Virus record (IMG/VR): IMGVR_UViG_3300030098_001091
DNA from: an uncultured virus (IMG/VR IMGVR_UViG_3300030098_001091)
Taxonomy: Duplodnaviria > Heunggongvirae > Uroviricota > Caudoviricetes
Reading direction: 5' to 3' (one strand)
DNA: 20,000 nt
Below the pieces are notes generated by a model. It was not told where the DNA came from. It made no database searches and saw only the letters and a program-made list of their open reading frames with translations. The position numbers and the translations under genes are program-made. This document shows, piece by piece, positions 7,413 through 19,938 of this stretch; position 1 is the stretch's first letter, and the number at the start of each line of letters is the position of its first letter.

Positions 7413-8999
7413 TTATACTCCTTGTGCTTGCTGTATTGCTGCTTGGACATTTTGTCCACCAGTTTCTTGGATATCTTGCTGGGCGGCATTAGCTACAGCC
7501 CCCGTAATAGCTTGATTCATCATTAATTCGTTTTGCTGAGCACTCTGCATTTCTGCTTGTGCTTGTGCAATCTTCATTTGTTCTTCACGAACCTGCTGCT
7601 CAGACTTAATCCAAAGATCTGCATTAAAGCCCAGTGAAGTAATTAAAGCACGACCATATTGATCCCACTTAAACATCATAGCTGCTGGCTCAGGAAGGTT
7701 TCTAACCATTTCACCCATATGCATCAGCTTTTGAAGATCAGAATCTCGGCTAAGTGCCTGAAGACCTGTAACGATTTCGATATCAATTAATCCTTTTTCC
7801 TTACTAAACATATCCGACAAGCGGGAATCAACCTCATCATTAGTAATCATAAGGAAGACGCTTCTAGAAACAATGGGTTCCATTAAGTCTCTAGCAATAG
7901 CGGAGAAAGCTCCACCGAGAACATGCTCAAGCTCTTGTCCAATCATACGCACAGCAGTTGCAGTAACTCTCTCACCTTGAGGAATACTAGCACTGTCTAA
8001 CAAGAATGCCCGACCAAGTTCTTGTCTTAGAATGTTTACACCAGCTTGGGTATGACCAATCTGGGGATTCATTGTAGTAGCTGGAGAGACAACATGCACC
8101 TCGTTGGGTCTTGCTCCGATCCAGCCACCTGTTGGTGTTCCATTAATATCATCAACCTCAGCCATACCCGTAGGATCGACAGCCATCCAGAAGATTGAGG
8201 AAGCAGTAATGCCATTTATCAAGCCTTCAGTAAATCCTTCAAGAGCTTTAATATCACCGATTAAATCTTCACAGTGACTTCGGCCATAGTTCTCGCCCGG
8301 AATACCAGACCACCTAAGGACAACGAAAGGAGGCACAGAATATTCACCTGAGTTTAAGACATTACCATCTTTATCTTCCGTCCAAGAATCCCAGACATCG
8401 CCCCTCTTACATACCTTAGTATATAAGGGTCGATACCCACTTCGATTATCCATGTCCATCGACGTGGTTAGTAGTTCCGCACTGTCCATTTCTTCATCAA
8501 GAGTTTCATACTCTTTGTAAATCAATTCTTCAACATCACCATAGACATCACGTCTTACGACGAAGCGATCAATGCGAACAATACGGAAGTTCATATCATC
8601 TTCCATAATAAGCATAACATCTCCTACGACAATTAAGTGTTGAAGGAGTTGGTAGATAGTTTCTCTAAGATTACCACTACTTAATTTATTATAGACTTGA
8701 TAACTTAAATTATTTAAATAAGATTCTACCTCAACCTCAGGCTGTATCCCTGAAAGTAACTCAAACCTAAAGAAAGGAGTATCATTTAATGGAAGAAGTG
8801 CCGAAAGCATTCTACTTGCCATTGCGGTTACGCCCCTTGCAGCAGTAGAACTATAAGGCTGGGGTAATTGATCTTGCTCAGTCCAGCCTGCGGGAGGAAG
8901 TAAAGAGGGTACTGTCAAACTAGAGCAATATCTTGCCCGTTCTAACTTATTAAGTCTAAGGGCATCTAAGGCTCTAAAGCGATCTGCTAATGTTGACAT
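7413..8999 (-). CDS. Head-tail connector (portal; T7 gp8-like)
   Basis: 528 aa; T+PSLLP, PY.S..ARGV..+AS++L.AL.P...PFFR, RW....GE.YGRS, ERVTAT.+R....ELE..LGG.+S, TGL.AL.R. Confidence 0.96.
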   Translation of the reverse strand: MSTLADRFRALDALRLNKLERARYCSSLTVPSLLPPAGWTEQDQLPQPYSSTAARGVTAMASRMLSALLPLNDTPFFRFELLSGIQPEVEVESYLNNLSYQVYNKLSSGNLRETIYQLLQHLIVVGDVMLIMEDDMNFRIVRIDRFVVRRDVYGDVEELIYKEYETLDEEMDSAELLTTSMDMDNRSGYRPLYTKVCKRGDVWDSWTEDKDGNVLNSGEYSVPPFVVLRWSGIPGENYGRSHCEDLIGDIKALEGFTEGLINGITASSIFWMAVDPTGMAEVDDINGTPTGGWIGARPNEVHVVSPATTMNPQIGHTQAGVNILRQELGRAFLLDSASIPQGERVTATAVRMIGQELEHVLGGAFSAIARDLMEPIVSRSVFLMITNDEVDSRLSDMFSKEKGLIDIEIVTGLQALSRDSDLQKLMHMGEMVRNLPEPAAMMFKWDQYGRALITSLGFNADLWIKSEQQVREEQMKIAQAQAEMQSAQQNELMMNQAITGAVANAAQQDIQETGGQNVQAAIQQAQGV

Positions 9000-9006
9000 A
9001 GTTTAT

Positions 9007-9381
9007 TTACTCCGGTCTCGATTCTTCAATAGTAGTATCAGGTGCCTGACCAGCAGCTAAGGCTCCCCACATAGCGGTTCGTCTTCGTTCTTTATCTTGC
9101 TGGGCAAGATCAGTTTCGGGAGTAGCATATTCAGCCGCAGCTTGTTCCTGTTGCTCTAAGGCAGCTACCCTATCAGCCTCTTGTCTCTTAGTAAGCTCAG
9201 CCATCTGTCCTTCCTGAGCTTTACGTTCTCGCTCCATATCAAGCTGGAATTGTCTAGCCTTAGCATCTCTTTCTTCAGCTAATAGATTTTCTTGCTCAAG
9301 CAAAGATTGACGATCTTCCATGGACAAGCCACCTGAAAATTCTGCTCCTCCAAAAAATAATGGGTGTGATCTATAAGCCAT
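9007..9381 (-). CDS. Hypothetical coiled-coil protein (T7 gp7.3-like position)
   Basis: 124 aa, helical and Q/E/A/R-rich; TAATG coupling with the upstream gene; directly before the portal gene. Confidence 0.7.
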   Translation of the reverse strand: MAYRSHPLFFGGAEFSGGLSMEDRQSLLEQENLLAEERDAKARQFQLDMERERKAQEGQMAELTKRQEADRVAALEQQEQAAAEYATPETDLAQQDKERRRTAMWGALAAGQAPDTTIEESRPE

Positions 9382-9860
9382 TAGTAGGGTCTCCTCTGTG
9401 TTGTATCTCTATTGGTTGGTCCAACACCACGACCCTGCTGTGGCATAGTAGGAATAGTAGGCATTGCTTTAGCTCTTCGGCTTAAGGCTGAAAGTTTTTC
9501 TCTATCAAAAGATGCGTCGGTTTTCGTAGGCTTCTCATCAATCTTTTTCCTAACCGCTTCCATTTCTTCTTGATGTCTCTTTTGACCTAGGATTTTTTTC
9601 TCTCTAAATTCTTTTTCAGATTTAGCGATTTCAGTTTTATGCGTTGCTTGTAAGACCTTTAGATCTTTTTCTGCTTGAATTCTTTCCCTTGCACTTGCGG
9701 ACTTTAGCTTAGCATTTAGTTCAGCCTTTTCCTTTTCATATTGAGCAATTGCTTTAGCCCTAGCTTCTTCTTCTTGTTTCTCAAAATTAATCTCGTCTAT
9801 ACCGAGGGCATCTCCAACAGAAGAAAGGATACTACTAAGTAAATCACCTAAGTCTCCCAT
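9381..9860 (-). CDS. Hypothetical coiled-coil protein (T7 gp6.7-like position)
   Basis: 159 aa, K/E-rich coiled coil with amphipathic N-terminus; AAGGAGG RBS. Confidence 0.72.
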   Translation of the reverse strand: MGDLGDLLSSILSSVGDALGIDEINFEKQEEEARAKAIAQYEKEKAELNAKLKSASARERIQAEKDLKVLQATHKTEIAKSEKEFREKKILGQKRHQEEMEAVRKKIDEKPTKTDASFDREKLSALSRRAKAMPTIPTMPQQGRGVGPTNRDTTQRRPY

Positions 9861-9864
9861 AAGG

Positions 9865-10056
9865 CTACCTCCTTTTCTGTTGTAGGGTTATTAAAGATTC
9901 AATTGCTGCGATGGCTTCGTCGCGACCATATTGTACAGCAAGTAAGCGAACAAGCTCGTCATTTGTCGCTTCTGGGTCGTACTTTGGAGTTGAAAACTTT
10001 TCCTTCAGATACTGAACCAGTTCCTTGTCTATCTTCGGAACTCTTTTCCAATCCAT
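9865..10056 (-). CDS. Small protein resembling T7 gp6.5 (63 aa)
   Basis: Start MDWKRVPKIDKELVQYLKEKF at 10056 with GAGGAG RBS; P.+.+....YL...F and a later G....+..+ match the gp6.5-like pattern and position. Confidence 0.65.
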   Translation of the reverse strand: MDWKRVPKIDKELVQYLKEKFSTPKYDPEATNDELVRLLAVQYGRDEAIAAIESLITLQQKRR

Positions 10057-10180
10057 GTAATTTCTCCTCAAGGGATTCTATTTGTAAGATTAGCTCACGA
10101 AGACACAAAACGACTTCCGCGGGAAGGACGTGTCCCCCCATTTGAACTTTTCTTTTAATAGTCTCAAAATTATGTTGCAT
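9959..10180 (-). CDS. Hypothetical 73-aa protein overlapping the gp6.5-like gene
   Basis: GGAG RBS 7 nt upstream; starts within the end of the RNR gene; coiled coil LRELILQIESLEEKL. Confidence 0.55.
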   Translation of the reverse strand: MQHNFETIKRKVQMGGHVLPAEVVLCLRELILQIESLEEKLHGLEKSSEDRQGTGSVSEGKVFNSKVRPRSDK

Positions 10181-12098
10181 ATGTATTCTCCGTTATGTCA
10201 ACAATTTCACAAGCCCCTCCATGACAGGCTAATTCCTTTGAGTTAGTTGTCGTGTCTTCTTGTTCATAGTCAGACAGTTCCGACCAGTCCACATTCTCAG
10301 GCATCTGTGCCATAAGGTTTCTATATGTAGACTCATCAATAGATTCGAAGGGAGCTTGATCATAAATGTTGTCATCCTTAGGAAGGAAAGACACACCACT
10401 CACATAGTCCCAATTATTCCAGACCCAATTACCAACTTCCATAATGTTGTCATCATTATATGATACGGTAATACTTGGCTTATGGTCGCACCAAGTCTTT
10501 TGATATTCTAACCAAACCTCAAGGTGCTGTACAGGATCCAGATCATCTTGGATAAGACATCCACTAGGAGATTCAATTGGGAAACTAAAGACCTTAGTGA
10601 TATCAGGCTGAGAAACGCAAGATTCATATGGTATTCCTTGATCAATCATGAACTGACAAATAGGATCCTTTGTATCTACACGAACCCTACGAATATAGTA
10701 TTGGGAATATCTTGGATGCATTCCAGACGATGTGCCCGCAACGCAGGAAGTAGTGCCACTCGGCTTACAACAAGTAATTGCAGCCGAATGCCCAATACCT
10801 AGGATATCAGCATAAGTTGTATTCCAAGTCTGAGCACACTCGTGTAACTTAGACAAGGCATTTCGAAGCTTGGGCATACCTAACTGACCAGACATTAGTT
10901 TATGGTCAAAGATACCGGTAAAGGATACGCCAAGTAGTCTCTCGTCCTCACAGTTAATCTTCCATTCTTTATTAAGATAAGGAAACTTAGTACAGTTAGA
11001 CTGAATTGTTCCCAGTAAAGTAGCAAGCTTAACCTTACGCATCAAAGCATCCACTGATTCACCTTCCCTGATAACCACCTCTGTTAAATTACAGAACTGA
11101 TTAGGTCTTAAGATAATCTCACTACAGGGGTTGGTACCCCAGTCGGAAGAAGGATCTCGGCCCACACGCTCAGCAAGCATGGACAGGGCTTCTCGATTGC
11201 AGATACCACGCTCGCCAGAGCGGGAATTGTACATAGCCGTCCACTCATCCAAGAATTCAGACATGGAAGGCTTGGATGTGTAGACTGCTGAGTTATTGCT
11301 GAGGCGACGATGGCCTGCTGCCTCCCACCACGGCCCGGACTTGGCAGTTGCCATTTCACGGTCGTGTAAATCACTGAGAGAAATCAGGGCAGATCGTCGG
11401 ACAGCTCCTGCAATCACGATTTCACCGATCATGCAGACAATATCATGAACCTCGATAGACTTGAGATGTCTACCCTTGGCCTTATTAAAGACATTCACAA
11501 CATATCGGAACAGCTTCTCCAGAGGCTCCGGGCCTGAGGCTCGACCTCCAAAGGTCTTAAGCCTAGCTCCAGCCGGACGAATCTTATGAGTATCCCAAGT
11601 TGGGTGAACACCCTGATACAGCTTCGTAAGCAGGGAATAAAAAGCATCTGCCCATCCTTCTCGGGAATCCTCAACCAGAATCACATCACCCTCAAGACGA
11701 GTAATGTCCTCTGGTACTTCTGGAAGCATTGAAATATACTTCTGTTCACAAGAGAATCCCACTCCTGTACCGCAGCACAGGATATACATAATCTCTGAGA
11801 AACTATGAATGTCCTTTACAGCGACATACGAGCAGTTATACATGCACGTATCATCCACATCAGCAGCTGGGCCTGCCGTCATAAGGGCTCTCATACTAGG
11901 GAAGATCTCTAAATTCTTCGTAGCTTCTCGGGCATCCTCAATATCCTGCTTTAATTCCCCAGTAAGGGCCGTAGAGTACCTAGAAATCAGATAATCGTAA
12001 TATCTGTCGACGCATTCATCCCAGGTTTCTCTTCTCTGAAGCTCCTCATTCCACCGACAATACTTAGATGTCACTATAAATTGTTGAAAGTTATCCAT
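10170..12098 (-). CDS. nrdJ: Class II adenosylcobalamin-dependent ribonucleotide reductase (monomeric RTPR/NrdJ type)
   Basis: Likely start MDNFQQF at 12098 (642 aa); PSMRAL, NCSY, GTGVGFS, DSREGW, RP.G..LK.FGG.ASGP.PL, VRRSA, catalytic TNPCSEI, CNLTE, KPSGT and C-terminal shuttle cysteines ACHGGACE; no nrdB in the window. Confidence 0.9.
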   Translation of the reverse strand: MDNFQQFIVTSKYCRWNEELQRRETWDECVDRYYDYLISRYSTALTGELKQDIEDAREATKNLEIFPSMRALMTAGPAADVDDTCMYNCSYVAVKDIHSFSEIMYILCCGTGVGFSCEQKYISMLPEVPEDITRLEGDVILVEDSREGWADAFYSLLTKLYQGVHPTWDTHKIRPAGARLKTFGGRASGPEPLEKLFRYVVNVFNKAKGRHLKSIEVHDIVCMIGEIVIAGAVRRSALISLSDLHDREMATAKSGPWWEAAGHRRLSNNSAVYTSKPSMSEFLDEWTAMYNSRSGERGICNREALSMLAERVGRDPSSDWGTNPCSEIILRPNQFCNLTEVVIREGESVDALMRKVKLATLLGTIQSNCTKFPYLNKEWKINCEDERLLGVSFTGIFDHKLMSGQLGMPKLRNALSKLHECAQTWNTTYADILGIGHSAAITCCKPSGTTSCVAGTSSGMHPRYSQYYIRRVRVDTKDPICQFMIDQGIPYESCVSQPDITKVFSFPIESPSGCLIQDDLDPVQHLEVWLEYQKTWCDHKPSITVSYNDDNIMEVGNWVWNNWDYVSGVSFLPKDDNIYDQAPFESIDESTYRNLMAQMPENVDWSELSDYEQEDTTTNSKELACHGGACEIVDITENTYAT

Positions 12099-12108
12099 AA
12101 TTTGTTCT

Positions 12109-12855
12109 TTATACTCCAACTTTAGGTTCCCAGAGATGGATTTCACCGGTTTCATTGTCATAATCTCCATCTCGTAGGATCCTGACGCACCTTGCCATAG
12201 CTAATGCTAGCTCTTTTTCCTCCAGATCGCAAGTCTTTTTAGGAGTAAACTTCTTGTTCTCGTAAAGATTGAATATCTCTTGAACAGGATCGCCTTCCCA
12301 CTTCCTTAAAAAACTCTTAGCTCTCTTTGGTCCCACTCTCCACAACCCCGGTATATTATCAGTATTGTCCCCCGTCATCCACTGAATTAGAAAGGATTCC
12401 CAAGAATTTTCTTCAGAAATATAGACAGGATCCTCATCCTTATCAGGATTAAAGTGCCATCCCGGTACAGTTTTTAAGTCTTTGTCTATAGTAACCGCAA
12501 TGGCTCTGCCTGATGACGCGGCCATACCCATAATATCATCTGCTTCCAGTCTTGGGATTTCTTCAGTTGTGTATACCTCTCGAATATAATCCTTAATTTC
12601 CCCTAAATACTCTGGAGTAGATTGAGTATCTCGGGTTGCCTTATAGATAGGCCAAAAGTCTCTTCGATAGTTATCATTTCTACTACAAGATAAAGCCATC
12701 GTAAACTCCACGGCTTCAGTAGGTAGCCAATTTTCCAAATATTCTTCGATAATCTGGGGGATAAAAGCTGGGTCATCTGTCTCAGCACGAAAGGCGGTTC
12801 TGTACGCGATTATATCTGCGTCAATCACTGCCGTTGTCGGGAGGGTATTCATCAT
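12109..12855 (-). CDS. 5'-3' exonuclease (T7 gp6-like)
   Basis: IDADI+AY, N+R......YK..R, LEADD+MG, TIDKDL.T+PG.H, GD.TDNIPG...+G.K.A; start codon uncertain (12852, 12855 or 12867). Confidence 0.92.
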   Translation of the reverse strand: MMNTLPTTAVIDADIIAYRTAFRAETDDPAFIPQIIEEYLENWLPTEAVEFTMALSCSRNDNYRRDFWPIYKATRDTQSTPEYLGEIKDYIREVYTTEEIPRLEADDIMGMAASSGRAIAVTIDKDLKTVPGWHFNPDKDEDPVYISEENSWESFLIQWMTGDNTDNIPGLWRVGPKRAKSFLRKWEGDPVQEIFNLYENKKFTPKKTCDLEEKELALAMARCVRILRDGDYDNETGEIHLWEPKVGV

Positions 12856-13576
12856 CTTCTTCACCACCTAAATCTTTAATGATTTTATCGATTAGTTCGG
12901 ATAACAGTTCTTCAATTTCATATTGAGTGAACGGCTCATCCTCATCTTCTTCATAACTATCGAGGTTAAAGGTCAAGCTAGACGCTTGAACTCCCGTCCA
13001 AATTGGGGACATAACCTTTGCCTTAAGTTTAAGTGCTTCCATATTATCGTCGTTCAGTATATGGTAATCAAACCACTTTGCCTTTTCTTCGTCACCTTCC
13101 ATGATAGCATTTGCTAATGCTTCTGAGTGATGGTTTCTCCAATCAGCATCAGACATCGGCAATTCTCTATCCCCCGGACTTAAGAAAACCATAGTAGCAT
13201 TGTACTTTAAACCTAGTCCCACTTCATTCTGATAGCGACAATCATCAACGATGACACAACGCTCCCAATAAGGATTACCCTTTTCTAAGTCAGACTTTTC
13301 AATAGAGGCTAATCTTTGTAGGTCTTCTTCAAAGAGATTGACCCAATAGTCTGGATCTAATTCTCTCTTAATAGCACCCATCTCTTGGCAATACTCCCGA
13401 TACTTAAGAGGTTGTTCTTCCTTAGAGTACCCTTTACTGATAGCCTCCTTCTTTAAAGGATCAGCAAAAGACATAAGCTTAGGTACTAACCCAAGATCAA
13501 ATGCTTCTTTAGCTATCAGATGGGCTAAGGCTGTCTTTCCTACCTGAGCCGGTCCAGAAATGATTATCAACTCCAT
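12821..13576 (-). CDS. Deoxynucleoside monophosphate kinase-like P-loop protein with acidic C-terminal tail
   Basis: Likely start MELIIISGPAQVGKT at 13576 (Walker A); SFADPLK, R...Q..G...R..DPDYWV, V+VDD.RY.NE and H.SE motifs of phage dNMP kinases. Confidence 0.85.
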   Translation of the reverse strand: MELIIISGPAQVGKTALAHLIAKEAFDLGLVPKLMSFADPLKKEAISKGYSKEEQPLKYREYCQEMGAIKRELDPDYWVNLFEEDLQRLASIEKSDLEKGNPYWERCVIVDDCRYQNEVGLGLKYNATMVFLSPGDRELPMSDADWRNHHSEALANAIMEGDEEKAKWFDYHILNDDNMEALKLKAKVMSPIWTGVQASSLTFNLDSYEEDEDEPFTQYEIEELLSELIDKIIKDLGGEEDDEYPPDNGSD

Positions 13577-14063
13577 CTTGAAGTTCCTTGTATAATTTAT
13601 GTGGAGCAACATGGAGATCCACGGTGTATCCACAGAATCTGAGTAAATAAGAAACAGCCAAAGCACATGTCATTGGCTGATATGTTTTAGATAAGTGCCT
13701 TCCTATAACCCACCAGAATATATTCTCATAGAAGGGGGATAGTTTAAACTTAGGTCTATCCACGAAGGAGGATATTTGAACTAAACTGACGGGGGAAATT
13801 CCCAATTCAACTTTCTGTGTATCAATAGCTAATTGCTGTTGTTTTATAACCCAAAGATATTTTTCATAGTCTACTAAGTACATTCCTCCACGAGGATTGA
13901 TCACGTAGATAAATTTCTTATCTTCCTGTTCAAATATAACACTGCAATGTGCAATCTTCTGCCATGAGATAAACTGATACAGTCTAGTTCTCCATGGTCG
14001 TTCTGCTGCTTCCCTATAAAACACACAGGAAATTTTGGTTGGGCTTAGGAAGGGACTTTTCAT
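13509..14063 (-). CDS. Putative permuted papain-like (NlpC/P60, YiiX-like) enzyme
   Basis: 184 aa; His precedes Cys (IAHCSVIF ... MTCALAVSYLL ... APHKLY..L), the order and context of circularly permuted NlpC/P60 proteins; ATGA coupling with the upstream gene. Confidence 0.5.
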   Translation of the reverse strand: MKSPFLSPTKISCVFYREAAERPWRTRLYQFISWQKIAHCSVIFEQEDKKFIYVINPRGGMYLVDYEKYLWVIKQQQLAIDTQKVELGISPVSLVQISSFVDRPKFKLSPFYENIFWWVIGRHLSKTYQPMTCALAVSYLLRFCGYTVDLHVAPHKLYKELQDGVDNHFWTGSGRKDSLSPSDS

Positions 14064-14389
14064 TGATACATTATAGTTAGATTCAGCATGACCGCTAAGG
14101 CATGTTCAATCTTAGCACCCTCAGATTTTTCCCAGCCTTCTAAACAATAAACAGCATCACACTTAGTAAGCTCAGATATATCCCGAGCCATCACTTTGCG
14201 AAGACCATCTCTTGATTGAAGCTCCTCATCAGACATTTTACTTTCTTTATCCAAGTTAACTGGATTAACGATAGTATAATAGATTCGTTTACTTCTGAGA
14301 TAATCCTCAGCCTTCATAAAAGCCTCACGATTGAGGTTCTTATGTCCTCGCATCGGTCCTGCGATATAAATATTCAATTCGTTATACAT
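14060..14389 (-). CDS. DUF4406 / nucleoside 2-deoxyribosyltransferase-like protein
   Basis: Start MYNEL at 14389 (TGATG overlap with the polymerase stop); IYIAGPM.G....N..AF, +NP, M..D+..L..CDA+..L.GWE.S.GA..E..+A. Confidence 0.85.
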   Translation of the reverse strand: MYNELNIYIAGPMRGHKNLNREAFMKAEDYLRSKRIYYTIVNPVNLDKESKMSDEELQSRDGLRKVMARDISELTKCDAVYCLEGWEKSEGAKIEHALAVMLNLTIMYQ

Positions 14390-16080
14390 CAATGACACTC
14401 CGACCAATTCTTTCCGATACGGTATTCACCGTCCATACGAACTCGGCAACCTAAGATCTTTCCAGACCTCTGAATTGCATTGCATCCTAGCTTACCAACA
14501 ATGTCGGCAATGATAGGATCGCACTCTATTTGCCACTCATCATGGACTGTTGCCATGAAGTTATATTGATTATAGTATGGCTTGAGATCTCTTTCAAGTA
14601 AAATCTGAGCTAACTTCATAATCATAGCACCGTCACCCTGAATCTGTACATTCAAGGCTTTGTGACCTGAGCGGCAAGGAACTTCCCGACCATCCAGCAA
14701 AGTTATTGTACCCTTGTTAGCTACTTGCCATTCAACATTTGCGAGCAATTGCTTTAGGGCAGGCATAGCTTCTAGGTAACGGTGCTTGATAATCTTTCCT
14801 TGTTTGGCATTCGATCCGATGATCTTGCCAATCTTCATATCCCCGGCTCCATAGATCAGGGCATAAAAGAATGTTTTAGCAGCATCCCGAGAAGGAAGGC
14901 CAGCTTTCTTTTGATTTACACTGTGGATATCATCATTAAGAACAGTATCCCCAAACTCTCCGTCATCCCATCGAGCCATTCGGGAGGCCAGTAGCCTAGC
15001 TTCTAGTCCAGAAGCATCGATACCAACCTGTACCCAATCTTCCCGAGGAACAAACAAAGCCCTAGCTCTAGGATCACCAGATACTTGTTGTAGATTAGGC
15101 TGAGAAGCCGTCATTCTACCTGTTACAGTACCTTGTGTATTGACTGAGCCATGCACACGGGCATCTCTAGACGTATTAGCCCTAAGAATCCAGTCTTCAA
15201 TTTGCCCTAACAGTTTAGTGATATAGAAATACTCACATAGTTGTTTAGCTTCAGGGAAGTTTAGAGACTTTAGAACTGACTCATCAACTTTGGGATTGCC
15301 CTTGTCAGTCTTAGGGGCTACCCAGTTATACTTATCACCCAATCTTTCAGCGATTTGCTTTCGAGAGCCGGGATTAAATACAGTGATCTTATCCTTAAGT
15401 CTCTTACCGGTCTTGTCTGACCACCGTTCTTCAATGATTGGTGGGAAGATCTGACCAAGAGTATCTTCAATCTGGACTTTCTCCATAAGAAGATCTCGTT
15501 CTAATTCTTCAGCAGCATCTAAGTCAAAGCCAAATCCATTGATGATTTGATTTGACACGATGTAAGCGATCTTATGCTCCATCTTTACCGACTTCATATT
15601 CTTAGAGGTAAAGGATTTCTGAGCATTATAAATGTCTACAGTAATAGAAACATCCTGATGACAATACGAGACCATCTCATTTGTTAGTGCTGAGAAATCA
15701 TGGAACTCAAGCTTATCAGAACCGAGATGCTTTCCCCATGCTTCTAGACTGTTATTGCCTAGAGGATGGTTTTGTCGATCCGGATACATAAGACGAGAAA
15801 CAATAAGTGTATCGTAAGCCTTAGTCTTTAGGGGGCCAACCAATCTTTCTACCATGGGTATATCGTACATGATTATATTATGTCCGATGAGCAGATCAGC
15901 TGAGTTCAGGTATTCTAAAGCTTCATCAAATTCACCGGGAAGAAACTCTTTCTTTTCTCCGGTGTTTACATCTTGTGTACAAATACAGAAGATTGTATCC
16001 CCTTCCTTTTCGGGTTTCCCCTTCTTGTTAATAATGACTTCGCTTAGGCCGTTAGCCTCGATGTCGAAAGCGAGTTTCAT
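14389..16080 (-). CDS. Family A DNA polymerase (T7 gp5-like) with 3'-5' exonuclease
   Basis: 563 aa; ExoI DIEANGL, ExoII GHNI..YD, ExoIII YC.QD; TGR....PNLQQ, motif A DASGLEAR, motif B RDAAKTFFYALIYG, motif C VHDE. Confidence 0.97.
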   Translation of the reverse strand: MKLAFDIEANGLSEVIINKKGKPEKEGDTIFCICTQDVNTGEKKEFLPGEFDEALEYLNSADLLIGHNIIMYDIPMVERLVGPLKTKAYDTLIVSRLMYPDRQNHPLGNNSLEAWGKHLGSDKLEFHDFSALTNEMVSYCHQDVSITVDIYNAQKSFTSKNMKSVKMEHKIAYIVSNQIINGFGFDLDAAEELERDLLMEKVQIEDTLGQIFPPIIEERWSDKTGKRLKDKITVFNPGSRKQIAERLGDKYNWVAPKTDKGNPKVDESVLKSLNFPEAKQLCEYFYITKLLGQIEDWILRANTSRDARVHGSVNTQGTVTGRMTASQPNLQQVSGDPRARALFVPREDWVQVGIDASGLEARLLASRMARWDDGEFGDTVLNDDIHSVNQKKAGLPSRDAAKTFFYALIYGAGDMKIGKIIGSNAKQGKIIKHRYLEAMPALKQLLANVEWQVANKGTITLLDGREVPCRSGHKALNVQIQGDGAMIMKLAQILLERDLKPYYNQYNFMATVHDEWQIECDPIIADIVGKLGCNAIQRSGKILGCRVRMDGEYRIGKNWSECH

Positions 16081-16089
16081 TTTCTACTC

Positions 16090-16728
16090 CTAAAATTTAC
16101 TGTCAGTGTTAATATTTTCTACAGCCGCAGTTATATCTGCGTCTGATCCTATAAAGTTCTTTAGTTCTTTGATCGTAAGTCTGGGTGTTGCGTACCATTC
16201 CTCGAAACATACTAGGTTTACTGGGATGTCCCAATCTTGTACACAGTATCCCAAGAAACGATCAAGCTCATCTTGGTGATGCTTTATGTACGCCCGCAAA
16301 TCTGACATACGCAAGTAATGCATCAGAGTTCTTCTTGGGGAAGGATTCGGTAAGATATCATATTCTGCGTTGACCAGCTTAGACAAGCTGTAAGTTTGGG
16401 CTATCCGATCTCGTCGATAACATAAGATAATCTTTTCCACCTTTTCCATAGGAACTAGGCTGAAGGCAGGAGCGAGGACTTTAATAGCCTCGCCCTGCCT
16501 ACAACCATCTTCCGACCATAGATAGTCATACGTTAAATGATCAGGTAGATTCCAGTACCCCTTGGGGTTGTGCTCTAGAAGAACATCTCTATTTTCTACG
16601 TCTTCTGGTAGGTGGGCTACACCAGACATATCAATAGAGTCTTCCATTGCAACAGGAATACCCAATAACTTAAGCGTTTGCATGGTCATGGAAGACCCAC
16701 TTCGTGGTGTCCCAGTCACAACAATCAT
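16090..16728 (-). CDS. Sulfotransferase-family (PAPS-binding P-loop) protein
   Basis: 212 aa; N-terminal IVVTG.PRSGSS.MQ.L (5'-PSB loop), NPKGY, +K, I...RR....Q..S (3'-PB), +.FEE....P...+..L..F+G. Confidence 0.75.
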   Translation of the reverse strand: MIVVTGTPRSGSSMTMQTLKLLGIPVAMEDSIDMSGVAHLPEDVENRDVLLEHNPKGYWNLPDHLTYDYLWSEDGCRQGEAIKVLAPAFSLVPMEKVEKIILCYRRDRIAQTYSLSKLVNAEYDILPNPSPRRTLMHYLRMSDLRAYIKHHQDELDRFLGYCVQDWDIPVNLVCFEEWYATPRLTIKELKNFIGSDADITAAVENINTDSKF

Positions 16729-18449
16729 CAGACTGGCTCCGTTACGATGGAGCCTTCATCGTTTACAGCAAACTCTAGTTCTCGTAAACGACCAGTCCCA
16801 TGATCATACAGCAAGCAACTGGCTACTCCAGCCTTACCCGTCAGACGATTCTTTAGAACTCTGACTGTTGTAGTATTAGCAACCACAGGATCAGGGTTCT
16901 GCCTATCTCGTTCTAATGCAACCACAACATTGGGTACACTAGCGAGTGAGCCAGAGCCTCGGAGATCCTGAAGGGTAATACGATCACCTTCTTCATAGGA
17001 CTTCTGAGTTTTCTTCAACTGCGATACCACATCAATGCGGACACCAGTTCTAGATACCAATGCTCTTAGTTCCTTCATAATATTATCAATCAGAAGACGT
17101 TCAGAGTTACTGTTATCATAGTCTGAGTTGCTGTTCAGCAAGCCAGCGGCAGCAGCAGTAATGTGATCGAGTACGATAACATCCACACCTAAAGATACTG
17201 CCATGAATTCCATGCGAGCACATAGATTTTCTAGGGCAGCATTACCAAGATGATCATAAACATACAGTGAGGATTTCTCCAACTCTTTACGAGCTTCTGC
17301 ATACTCATCATCAGTAAGGTCATCAATCATATCGATATCGATAGGTTCCTTGCCTAGCTTAACCCGAAGCTCATTCATTAGCTTCTTGGCTCTAATAGCT
17401 CGCACAGGCTTGTTAAGGATAAGCGATACCATATCATCAACAGTCTCTTGCGGAGACTCCTCAAGCATGATAGCACCTACACTACGACCTTCACACAGAT
17501 GGTGATGCATTAGTTCTCTCAGTATAGTAGACTTGCCACTGCCAGTACCACTAGCCCAAAGAGTAATTTCACCACTACGCTGGCCGAGAAGGAACTCAGA
17601 TAGGTTGTCAAATGGGAAGGGATATACTCTTGTTTGATCCATGTGAGGATCGTTAACAACTTCTGAAACATGTACAATCTCATCTGGACTATAGTGTTGA
17701 GCTTCCCAAAGTGCTGAGATAATAGACTTACCCGCACCCTTCATTAGGCACTCATTGGGATCCTTGTAGGGAAGCCGAGCTACCTTACACTTACCGGGTG
17801 GAAGAATTTCAGCCACTGCTTTCACAGCTTCTTGGCCTGCTTCATCCTGATCAAACATCAAGATAATTTCTTGGTATGAACTAACAAACTCAAGATTCTC
17901 TTTGATTGATCTAGCAGCACCAGCCGCTCCGTTAGGTAGAGAAACTACGGGCCACTTGTTATTCATCAATTGACTCACGGTCATGCAATCGATCTCACCT
18001 TCAGTGATGATCAACATCTTACCGCCTCTAGCCTTGAACAAGTGTTGTCCCCACAAGGGAACATTAGAAGCCTGACCACGCCACTGGAAAGACTTATTAG
18101 GTCCGCGAAGCTTTTGAGCTATGCGAATTCCATCCTTATAGAAACTAGCGATCTCAACAGTTTTGTTTTGAGATACCAAAGTTTCATACCCATACTTACG
18201 TACAGTATCTTCATTGATCCTACGATGCGAAATAGCCTGAAGGTCTCCGCTAAGAAACTTCAGGCCATTCGCTGTCGCAGGTGTCTCGTCTGGTTTATTA
18301 CTTACGATTGCTTTAACTCCTCGTTCAATATATTTGCACGCAAAGCAATACTTTCCACCGTCTTCATAAACGGCAAGGTTATCTCCACTGGTGTCATTAC
18401 CAGCAGCGGCACACTTAGGACAGCGAGCCCGTGAAACTACCTTTGACAT
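16728..18449 (-). CDS. Primase-helicase (T7 gp4-like)
   Basis: 573 aa; zinc ribbon CPKC...CFAC, TOPRIM ITEGEIDC and FDQDEAG, KDPNE, SF4 helicase SGTGSGKST, LEES, LDHI, SQL, DLRGSGS, LKNR.TG; GAGG RBS. Confidence 0.97.
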   Translation of the reverse strand: MSKVVSRARCPKCAAAGNDTSGDNLAVYEDGGKYCFACKYIERGVKAIVSNKPDETPATANGLKFLSGDLQAISHRRINEDTVRKYGYETLVSQNKTVEIASFYKDGIRIAQKLRGPNKSFQWRGQASNVPLWGQHLFKARGGKMLIITEGEIDCMTVSQLMNNKWPVVSLPNGAAGAARSIKENLEFVSSYQEIILMFDQDEAGQEAVKAVAEILPPGKCKVARLPYKDPNECLMKGAGKSIISALWEAQHYSPDEIVHVSEVVNDPHMDQTRVYPFPFDNLSEFLLGQRSGEITLWASGTGSGKSTILRELMHHHLCEGRSVGAIMLEESPQETVDDMVSLILNKPVRAIRAKKLMNELRVKLGKEPIDIDMIDDLTDDEYAEARKELEKSSLYVYDHLGNAALENLCARMEFMAVSLGVDVIVLDHITAAAAGLLNSNSDYDNSNSERLLIDNIMKELRALVSRTGVRIDVVSQLKKTQKSYEEGDRITLQDLRGSGSLASVPNVVVALERDRQNPDPVVANTTTVRVLKNRLTGKAGVASCLLYDHGTGRLRELEFAVNDEGSIVTEPV

Positions 18450-18992: not shown

Positions 18993-19164
18993 CGAGATCC
19001 TCCCCTTTCATTAATTCATTTAGTCTTCTAAGACTTGCGTCCTCTTCTTCTAAGTCCATACTTATTCTTTTTCGATCTTCTCGGTTTCCCCGCCTTCTTT
19101 CCTCGGAAGTGCGAAACTCCTCCAACTGTTGTTTTAGCCATCTTAGTTTCTCCTGTCTCGTCAT
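18985..19164 (-). CDS. Hypothetical charged 59-aa protein
   Basis: Start MTRQEKL at 19164 with AGGAG RBS and ATGA overlap with the thyX stop; R/E-rich helix. Confidence 0.65.
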   Translation of the reverse strand: MTRQEKLRWLKQQLEEFRTSEERRRGNREDRKRISMDLEEEDASLRRLNELMKGEDLDD

Positions 19165-19853
19165 TGTGATTTCTCTCCTGTTAGTGCTCTCCAACTATAA
19201 GGGAACCGCGATTGAATAAGTTCTCCGATTGCTTTAGCGTATTCTCTTATTTCCCATTGAGCATGAGGATCTGATCTTTGCTTATAAAATCTAGCGTATG
19301 CAGCGAGACTTCCTGTCCAGTACCATTGTGTATAGGTTCCTTGTGGAAGCACACTTCTAGCCTGCTCTGGTGCAACGCCTTTTCTAATGAGGCTTTCATA
19401 CACAGAGATAGCATCTCCTGTTAACCACCGCATCTCTTCAAGCATTCCAGCCTCAAGATCAATAAAATCAGAGGAGCCTTGCTTAGCAGATCCTTTAGGT
19501 TTGCCTCTCCACTGTGGTTCATAAACTTCTACCTCAGTAGTAACATATCTTCGGGAGATTTCATTTTCTACAAAACCTTGCTTATGCTTAAAGAATTGAG
19601 TTCTAATAAAGATAGGAGCTTTAATCCTTAGTGTAATTTGAGGATGGGCAAAGGGAGTCCAGTGATTATAGACTGCAAGAAATCTGATTAATTTTTGATC
19701 AGCCTTAGAGAGAACGCCTTTTGTTTCATCCCATGATGATTCCTTATCAAAAGAAACACGGGCAGCGTTAACAACAGTTAAGTCAGATCCCATTACATCT
19801 TTTAGGACAACTTCCCCTTTATCTAATACTTGTGAATATAAAGTTGGTGTCAT
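19161..19853 (-). CDS. thyX: Flavin-dependent thymidylate synthase
   Basis: Start MTPTLY at 19853 (AAGGA RBS); GSDL.VVNAARVS, H.TPF.H, AP+F+..Q..KH...NE.SRRY, GVA.EQAR.VLP, R....AQWEIR. Confidence 0.93.
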   Translation of the reverse strand: MTPTLYSQVLDKGEVVLKDVMGSDLTVVNAARVSFDKESSWDETKGVLSKADQKLIRFLAVYNHWTPFAHPQITLRIKAPIFIRTQFFKHKQGFVENEISRRYVTTEVEVYEPQWRGKPKGSAKQGSSDFIDLEAGMLEEMRWLTGDAISVYESLIRKGVAPEQARSVLPQGTYTQWYWTGSLAAYARFYKQRSDPHAQWEIREYAKAIGELIQSRFPYSWRALTGEKSQ

Positions 19854-19865
19854 GATTTTCCTTAA

Positions 19866-19938
19866 TAGGCTGGGTTGGATTCGAACCAACGACTTACTCG
19901 TTATGAGCGAGGTGCTCTAACCCCTGAGCTACCAGCCC
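19866..19938 (-). tRNA. tRNA with CAT anticodon (probably Ile2, otherwise elongator Met; not initiator)
   Basis: GGGCTGG-TA-GCTC-AGGGGTTA-GAGC-A-CCTCG-CTCATAA-CGAGT-AAGTC-GTTGG-TTCGAAT-CCAAC-CCAGCCT-A; 73 nt; no encoded CCA; lacks the three G-C anticodon-stem pairs of fMet tRNA. Confidence 0.9.

Follow-up and report, generated by a model that had tools for sequence, protein, structure and literature searches.

A compact sulfotransferase gene lies between the genes for the primase-helicase and the DNA polymerase in a 20,000-nucleotide stretch of DNA (the window) from an uncultured virus of the Caudoviricetes (IMG/VR record IMGVR_UViG_3300030098_001091). The gene occupies positions 16090-16728 on the minus strand and encodes a protein of 212 amino acids (aa), P0001. 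By motif, sequence profile and predicted fold, P0001 is assigned to the superfamily of sulfotransferases that use 3′-phosphoadenosine 5′-phosphosulfate (PAPS) as donor (Pfam Sulfotransfer_3, PF13469, and Sulfotransfer_1, PF00685). The gene is an optional accessory of a marine T7-like podovirus lineage, carried at one fixed junction, and it has descended vertically with losses, diverging much faster than its neighbours. Taken together, its sequence, distribution and history suggest that P0001 is probably a working PAPS-dependent sulfotransferase that acts on a molecule of the host cell and is not a component of the replisome.

Sequence family, donor site and fold

Searched alone against Pfam, P0001 matched only Sulfotransfer_3, over residues 2-21 and at E 0.11 (13.2 bits against a curated cut-off of 27). 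PHROGs held no family for it, NCBIfam gave only noise, and tblastn of P0001 and of the family member P0006 against 50,697 deposited phage records returned no match at E <= 1e-3. A word-index search yielded eight proteins at E <= 0.001 among 93 candidates, and an exhaustive search yielded 91 cluster representatives at this threshold, 17 of them at E <= 1e-10 and three at E <= 1e-30. Of the closest eight, seven match PF13469 and five match PF00685 (E <= 0.01), the unmatched eighth being P0001 itself; cellular members of the family score above the Pfam cut-off (e.g., 48.8 bits for L026). Searched against solved structures, an eight-sequence profile placed TPST2 first (E 1.1e-4), with PRSGT aligned on PRSGT, and 44 of its 48 rows bear sulfotransferase-family names, the other four being two ORC1 chains, a lipase and a glutamate racemase. 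A larger family alignment was made of 57 sequences of about 165-240 aa, picked by length from the results of the exhaustive search. The 30 best rows obtained with its profile (E <= 1.5e-4) are all named sulfotransferases, beginning with SULT1A3 (E 1.3e-8), in which RNPKDVAVS pairs with R105...S114 of P0001 and YEDMKENP...EFVG with the segment FEDM..NP...F.G. A profile of the N-terminal 84-102 residues gave nothing significant against solved structures, and no known catalytic residue could be matched with the NPKGYWE motif that it contains. Four long proteins (P0024, P0068, P0071 and P0073; 557-1975 aa) matched only query residues of about 36-100, in 5-11 repeated stretches each, a pattern that may come from an artefact of repeats or composition, or else from a recurring module that resembles NPKGYW.

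An earlier note on this DNA, made from the sequence alone, had described P0001 as a sulfotransferase-fold protein with both PAPS-binding motifs. The motifs are present, as G6-T-P-R9-S-G11-S-S13 and R105-x5-Q111-x2-S114, and the description is borne out by the profiles, by the neighbours of the structure model and by the alignment of both motifs with TPST2 or SULT1A3. The 5′-phosphosulfate-binding (PSB) loop, GTPRSGSS at residues 6-13 (16690-16713; this and all features below are on the minus strand), is positioned between a strand (2-6) and a helix (12-21) of the model. Its residues 8-13, PRSGSS, follow the pattern P-[KR]-[ST]-G-[ST]-[ST] and align with PRSGTT of TPST2 and PKSGTT of SULT1A3. 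G6, R9, G11 and S13 are invariant in the 22 homologues from the helicase-polymerase slot and at least 90% conserved in the 57 family members, with R9 and G11 each kept in at least 53. The 3′-phosphate-binding (3′-PB) motif, R105 to S114 (16387-16416), falls at the junction of a strand (99-104) and a helix (108-125) in the model and shows the R-x7-8-S spacing; R105 is found in all 57 members and S114 in 55. The spacer is one residue longer than that of RNPKDVAVS in SULT1A3, the extra column being a gap in 38 of the 57 rows.

A third conserved element is K83 (codon 16480-16482), at the end of strand 81-83, which is lysine in 56 of 57 members and invariant in the slot homologues; we take it to be the counterpart of the conserved strand-end lysine of cytosolic sulfotransferases. 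The catalytic base is a histidine in the SULT enzymes and a glutamate in TPST and the heparan-sulfate enzymes. The site of the SULT histidine is presumably two residues past K83, where P0001 has no histidine and instead carries L85. The loop motif N54-P-K-G-Y-W-N60 (16549-16569) is specific to the family, in which the consensus is NPKGYWE, N54 is kept in 51 of 57 members and G57 in 55. Position 60 is the only strongly conserved N-terminal acid of the family (E/D in 47 of 57). P0001 and L001, the homologue 80% identical to it, have N there and L002 has Q, and D or E is found in all 20 other distinct slot homologues. Conservation among slot homologues extends beyond the donor motifs, for example to N54-P55-G57, F192 and N205. 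In one polymerase clade (L068, L090, L092 and L103) the slot sulfotransferases have G or K at the S114 position and GAGRCGSS in the PSB loop, and may bind the donor differently.

An AlphaFold model of P0001, computed with the 57-row alignment, reached a predicted local distance difference test score (pLDDT) of 95 and a predicted template modelling score (pTM) of 0.91. Foldseek comparison of the model with the PDB gave 19 matches at E <= 0.001, all of them sulfotransferases or the sulfotransferase-fold retinol dehydratase, and the top neighbours include retinol dehydratase and the olefin-synthase and CurM sulfotransferase domains. The matched sulfotransferase chains are 239-803 residues long, compared with 212 aa in P0001. 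The earlier note had also pointed out that the fold is related to that of nucleoside monophosphate kinases, and the kinase fold is indeed close to the model, such that fold scores alone would be insufficient to separate the two. Nevertheless, the sulfotransferase fold is the best structural match of the model, and kinase families are the best match neither in sequence nor in structure. The choice of sulfotransferase over kinase is made because the Walker-A lysine is missing, because the R and S of the 3′-PB motif are conserved, and because of the genomic contexts of distant homologues. The Walker A pattern G-x4-G-K-[ST] is replaced in P0001 by G6-TPRS-G11-S12-S13, and the position of its lysine (12) is T or S in 54 of the 57 members and a gap in three, and never K.

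At the C-terminus (16090-16110) P0001 has ...NTDSKF and its two closest relatives have ...KTDSTF and ...ITDYY, each closing on an aromatic residue after T-D, in a tail modelled with low confidence (pLDDT 58). T7 gp4 and gp2.5 have polymerase-docking tails, which this aromatic C-terminus faintly echoes; the other slot homologues do not have the aromatic T-D ending.

A variable occupant of one junction

The open reading frame (ORF) and its junctions read from the sequence as the earlier note had given them. On the minus strand, the stop codon of the primase-helicase gene and the start of the P0001 gene overlap as TGATG (16726-16730, in the context ...GTC TGATG ATT...), with the helicase TGA at 16730-16728 and the P0001 ATG at 16728-16726 having one base (A) in common. 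The P0001 stop codon, TAG, is at 16092-16090 and is separated by 9 nt (16089-16081) from the polymerase ATG at 16080. A GGAG (16737-16740) is found 8 nt 5′ of the P0001 ATG, and an AGGAG (16087-16091) overlaps the P0001 stop codon 5′ of the polymerase ATG, so that spacer and AGGAG together span 16081-16091. The junction between helicase and sulfotransferase genes measured -1 to -20 nt in five of six related loci and +33 nt in the sixth, L002. P0001 is the product of a real gene and not of a chance ORF, because its start methionine is at the same aligned first position in 47 of the 57 family rows, the ratio of nonsynonymous to synonymous substitution rates (dN/dS) relative to L001 is 0.117, and 42 of the 80 related viral loci surveyed carry the gene. 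An artefactual ORF was rejected on the conservation of P0001 and on this ratio.

A pattern scan of IMG/VR identified 22 loci, in 14 of which (L001-L014) the gene lies between ORFs of helicase and polymerase size, and PHROGs confirmed both neighbours for L003, L011 and L013. A complementary survey was anchored on the polymerase and covered the 80 best viral loci, in which this enzyme is 57-88% identical to that of the window. The slot holds the sulfotransferase in 42 of these loci and another small ORF in three. In 31 loci the helicase gene abuts or overlaps the polymerase gene (gap -17 to +75 nt), and four loci with too little upstream sequence are uninformative. Counted as distinct polymerase sequences, 29 of 54 have the gene, 22 lack it and three have another gene. 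The alternative ORFs encode 138 aa in L071 (2629-3045) and 108 aa in L122 and L124 (3159-3485 in the latter), and because three related phages hold a different small ORF here, the helicase-polymerase junction acts as a cargo site. As to synteny in related phage contigs, a check that the earlier note had proposed, the gene is found in the same slot in over half of the surveyed loci, the slot is empty in many others, and distant phage homologues are located elsewhere. The note's remark that in T7 this slot holds small non-essential genes agrees with the two cultured relatives inspected, the Pelagibacter phages HTVC120P and Bylgja (polymerase 41% identical), where it contains two small hypothetical genes and nothing else.

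When presence or absence of the gene is placed on a polymerase tree of 76 rows, the label must change five times, and at least three of these changes are forced by well-supported branches. All members of the 12-row clade that includes the window (support 100) have the gene, and all members of its 10-row sister clade (support 100) lack it. Complete 3.5-kb flanks were available for 30 distinct loci, 18 of them with the gene and 12 without, and in this set no other gene cluster was positively associated with presence of the sulfotransferase; genes for DUF4406 and kinase-like proteins occur equally in the two groups.

The sulfotransferase gene is under purifying selection; its dN/dS between the window and L001 (0.117) compares with 0.047 in the polymerase gene and 0.051 in that of the helicase. 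When distinct loci are compared in pairs, the sulfotransferases are less alike than the polymerases in 230 of 231 (mean identity 39% vs. 66%), and L002 is the extreme case, with a helicase 89%, a polymerase 85% and a sulfotransferase 48% identical. Despite this rapid divergence, the sulfotransferase tree mirrors four polymerase clades (support 99, 99, 98 and 58), and the gene has thus stayed with the replication module through descent, being lost repeatedly rather than hopping in. A mobile or homing cassette was rejected, as there is no endonuclease in the slot and the sulfotransferase tree follows that of the polymerase. Conservation is concentrated in the segments predicted to form the donor site, and the fast divergence falls outside the cofactor site: the mean frequency of the commonest residue is 0.82 for residues 1-25, 0.66 for both 51-62 and 79-86, and 0.58 for 99-118, and it drops to 0.29-0.34 for residues 26-50, 63-78, 87-98 and 141-168.

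Candidate acceptors

Because the genes overlap and leave essentially no intergenic space, the sulfotransferase, helicase and polymerase genes are presumably transcribed and translated together in the DNA-replication phase. In the sulfotransferase, the PSB loop (R9, S10, G11 and S13), K83 and R105/S114 would then hold PAPS. The host would have to supply this PAPS, as the earlier note had argued from the lack of an APS (adenosine 5′-phosphosulfate) kinase, because neither APS kinase nor ATP sulfurylase is encoded nearby: these families have no match among the window ORFs scanned, and no APS kinase above the cut-off was found in five related viral records, which gave only sub-threshold P-loop matches (12.5 bits). 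The 12.5-bit matches in G002 and G003 are counterparts of an ORF in the window resembling deoxynucleoside monophosphate (dNMP) kinases; that of G002 is about 2.5 kb downstream of the sulfotransferase gene, where the window has this ORF. The sulfuryl group would be passed to an acceptor, at a hydroxyl or amine, without the help of any other phage gene in the module. This acceptor would be a molecule of the host cell and not phage DNA: a glycan or glycolipid of the envelope, a small metabolite, or a protein. A dispensable, solo and fast-evolving gene has the profile that would be expected of host-interaction genes. For a subunit of the replisome, or for an enzyme of a multi-step DNA-hypermodification pathway, another profile would be expected, and a host-derived acceptor is therefore favoured over DNA. 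Similarly, conserved donor segments with quickly diversifying segments between them would fit an enzyme that tracks a changing target in the host. P0001 is acidic (isoelectric point (pI) 5.1, net charge -9; pI in the family ranges from 4.8 to 10), which points weakly the same way, toward an acceptor other than DNA.

The contexts of homologues elsewhere bear on both donor and acceptor. Cellular and related loci were found with the shared motifs of the eight-sequence alignment. In three Thermoplasmatales contigs (L028, L032 and L034) the homologue is between or beside genes for ATP sulfurylase and APS kinase, a context that points indirectly to PAPS as the donor, and the ATP sulfurylase, small sulfotransferase and APS kinase of these operons would make up a self-contained sulfation cassette. 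In L032 and L034 a DHH-family gene is located between that for ATP sulfurylase and the next gene. In a contig from Thermodesulfobacteriota the homologue is part of an exopolysaccharide gene cluster that also encodes two glycosyltransferases, a sugar transferase, Poly_export and Wzz. A contig from a Planktotalea metagenome-assembled genome (L048, 1748-9640) has what looks like a peptide-modification or lasso-peptide-type locus, with genes for Asn-synthase-like, PF00685 sulfotransferase, HPr-kinase-C-like, NTP_transf_5 and ABC exporter proteins; it also has a 252-aa ORF without a Pfam match, the first 59 or so residues of which resemble the P-loop region of the P0001 family. Among phages, neighbours were scanned in five of the eight IMG/VR loci outside the slot (L015, L016, L017, L019 and L022). 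The L019 homologue directly follows the large terminase gene, near a tail-fibre-repeat protein, that of L016 is three genes before a 916-aa protein, and those of L015, L017 and L022 are among large unannotated proteins. The 916-aa protein (8192-10942, in a 38.6-kb viral record with terminal repeats) has an ART-PolyVal ADP-ribosyltransferase domain (E 2.6e-11).

One specific form of host-directed activity, which we put forward tentatively, is that sulfation is a weapon in phage-host conflict, with host PAPS being used to sulfate a host molecule important for infection: a nucleotide that signals in immunity, a protein that serves in defence or as a receptor, or a glycan of the envelope. If so, envelope-glycan sulfation would act on a glycan that otherwise traps progeny or admits competitors, and the role would be the first assigned to any phage sulfotransferase. 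An unlikely alternative is a TPST- or RaxST-like enzyme that transfers sulfate to tyrosine, or to some other residue, of a protein or peptide, its target being a host or phage protein.

We consider it quite unlikely that P0001 is a degenerate or repurposed member of the superfamily that binds PAPS or PAP (3′-phosphoadenosine 5′-phosphate), or hydrolyses PAPS, and so drains or senses activated sulfate of the host. The N or Q that P0001, L001 and L002 have at position 60, in place of the acid usual in the family, would be in keeping with degeneration, as would the high rate of change and the small size of the protein, which leaves few acceptor-side elements next to the longer chains matched in the PDB. 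However, the low dN/dS and the conservation outside the donor motifs, at residues such as N54, F192 and N205, speak against this reading.

The earlier note had reasoned from the position of the gene within the replisome to a nucleotide or DNA substrate. On this reading, the substrate of the enzyme would be DNA of phage or host, a nucleotide, or a signal derived from one, and the placement of the gene in the replication module would reflect this. In favour are the tight fit between helicase and polymerase in 42 related loci, and the presence in the window of ThyX, ribonucleotide reductase, dNMP-kinase-like and DUF4406/nucleoside-deoxyribosyltransferase-like proteins. In addition, several of the top structural neighbours use sulfate as a leaving group, a chemistry that would suit activation of a hydroxymethyl base. 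The distribution of the gene does not support this reasoning, since sister phages have the same replisome without it and the flanking 3.5 kb hold no gene that covaries with it; the genes for DUF4406 and kinase-like proteins are spread over both groups of loci. The argument is weakened further by the homologues at a distance, those of phages being beside terminase, tail-fibre or large genes and outside replication modules in the loci inspected, and cellular ones in loci for PAPS synthesis or exopolysaccharide. The acidity of the protein also speaks against it, as does the thymidylate synthase, which is ThyX and not a ThyA-type hydroxymethylase, a distinction that we take to hold. The evidence thus removes the argument for a DNA or nucleotide acceptor, and such an acceptor is very unlikely. 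Finally, close as its fold is, a P-loop nucleotide or nucleoside kinase catalysing phosphoryl transfer, the other alternative in the earlier note, is highly improbable because the position of the Walker-A lysine never holds K, the profiles match sulfotransferases and not kinases, the 3′-PB motif is conserved, and the archaeal homologues belong to PAPS-synthesis operons that already have an APS kinase of their own.

The lineage offers a clean natural experiment in the form of close relatives with the same replisome that differ by exactly one gene at one junction, with purifying selection clear at the cofactor site and change rapid elsewhere. Sulfotransferase genes recur in marine phage genomes and viromes, and this lineage is a good entry point to what phages sulfate.

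Neighbouring genes and known sulfotransferases

All long ORFs of the window are on the minus strand and follow a T7-like gene order: ThyX, primase-helicase, P0001, DNA polymerase, a DUF4406-like ORF, a 184-aa ORF of unknown function and the dNMP-kinase-like ORF, followed by exonuclease, ribonucleotide reductase, portal, scaffold, major capsid and tail proteins. ThyX (19161-19889) was identified by family scan, the upstream neighbour of P0001 as a DNA primase-helicase (16728-18449; phrog_239, E 2.5e-156) and the downstream neighbour as a DNA polymerase (14389-16080; phrog_17, E 2.2e-119). The polymerase is 41% identical to those of Pelagibacter podophages, and the best cultured relatives of the window show 29-41% identity; the nearest record of all, G001, is a 4-kb fragment without the sulfotransferase gene. 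The DUF4406/nucleoside 2-deoxyribosyltransferase-like ORF (14060-14407, 115 aa; Pfam E 2.4e-20) overlaps the polymerase stop codon, and is present in eight of the 18 loci with the sulfotransferase and eight of the 12 without. The dNMP-kinase-like P-loop protein (12821-13666; phrog_139, E 2.3e-22) has a long, strongly acidic C-terminal tail (...EEDEDE...EEDDEYPPDNGSD), and the GTG start listed for it is probably too far upstream, as the P-loop starts about 30 residues in. PADLOC gave no match for the sulfotransferase or for six of the seven neighbours scanned, and one weak match (E 0.0036) for the seventh.

In T7 the same position between primase-helicase and polymerase is occupied by the small genes 4.3-4.7. 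The slot encodes small proteins of unknown function in T7 and the Pelagibacter podophages, none of them an enzyme with a recognised fold, and a sulfotransferase, nothing, or a 108- or 138-aa ORF in the lineage of the window. Compared with the tyrosylprotein sulfotransferases TPST1 and TPST2 (5wri and 3ap3), P0001 is shorter (212 aa vs. chains of 274-282 residues) and only about 14-15% identical, and the TPST catalytic glutamate could not be mapped onto it. The best sequence-profile matches are with SULT1A3 (1cjm) and SULT1A1 (E 1.3e-8 to 3.5e-8), over the strand-helix of the 3′-PB motif and the FEDM..NP..F.G segment. P0001 differs from these enzymes in having R in place of K in the PSB loop, in being much shorter than the 295 aa of SULTs, and in having an N-terminal half without a significant match to a solved structure. 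The small archaeal and bacterial homologues belong to the same compact family (184-215 aa) and all pass Pfam Sulfotransfer_1 and/or Sulfotransfer_3. They are, however, only 23-31% identical, form a separate clade and, unlike the phage gene, lie beside genes for making PAPS or glycans.

The closest parallels are the annotated sulfotransferases of phages, which like P0001 are virus-borne and of the Sulfotransfer_3 type. The best structural matches in BFVD include a 'Sulfotransferase' of Synechococcus phage S-SCSM1 and 'Sulfotransferase family protein' entries of uncultured Caudovirales, one of them of 183 aa (E 4e-4 to 1e-3). In the ESM Atlas the top cluster (score 0.95) is a sulfotransferase family of 59 members, all of them viral. 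PF13469 genes are described in viral genomes related to OM43 phages, in a report of which one passage calls the role of phage sulfotransferases unclear (PMC10580990). Our literature searches found no paper that assigns a function to a phage sulfotransferase or describes the helicase-polymerase slot. Phage sulfotransferases are already annotated, and P0001 represents the correct annotation of a known enzyme type and not a new system; it differs from those annotated previously in its fixed position between helicase and polymerase, with a pattern of presence and absence among close relatives.
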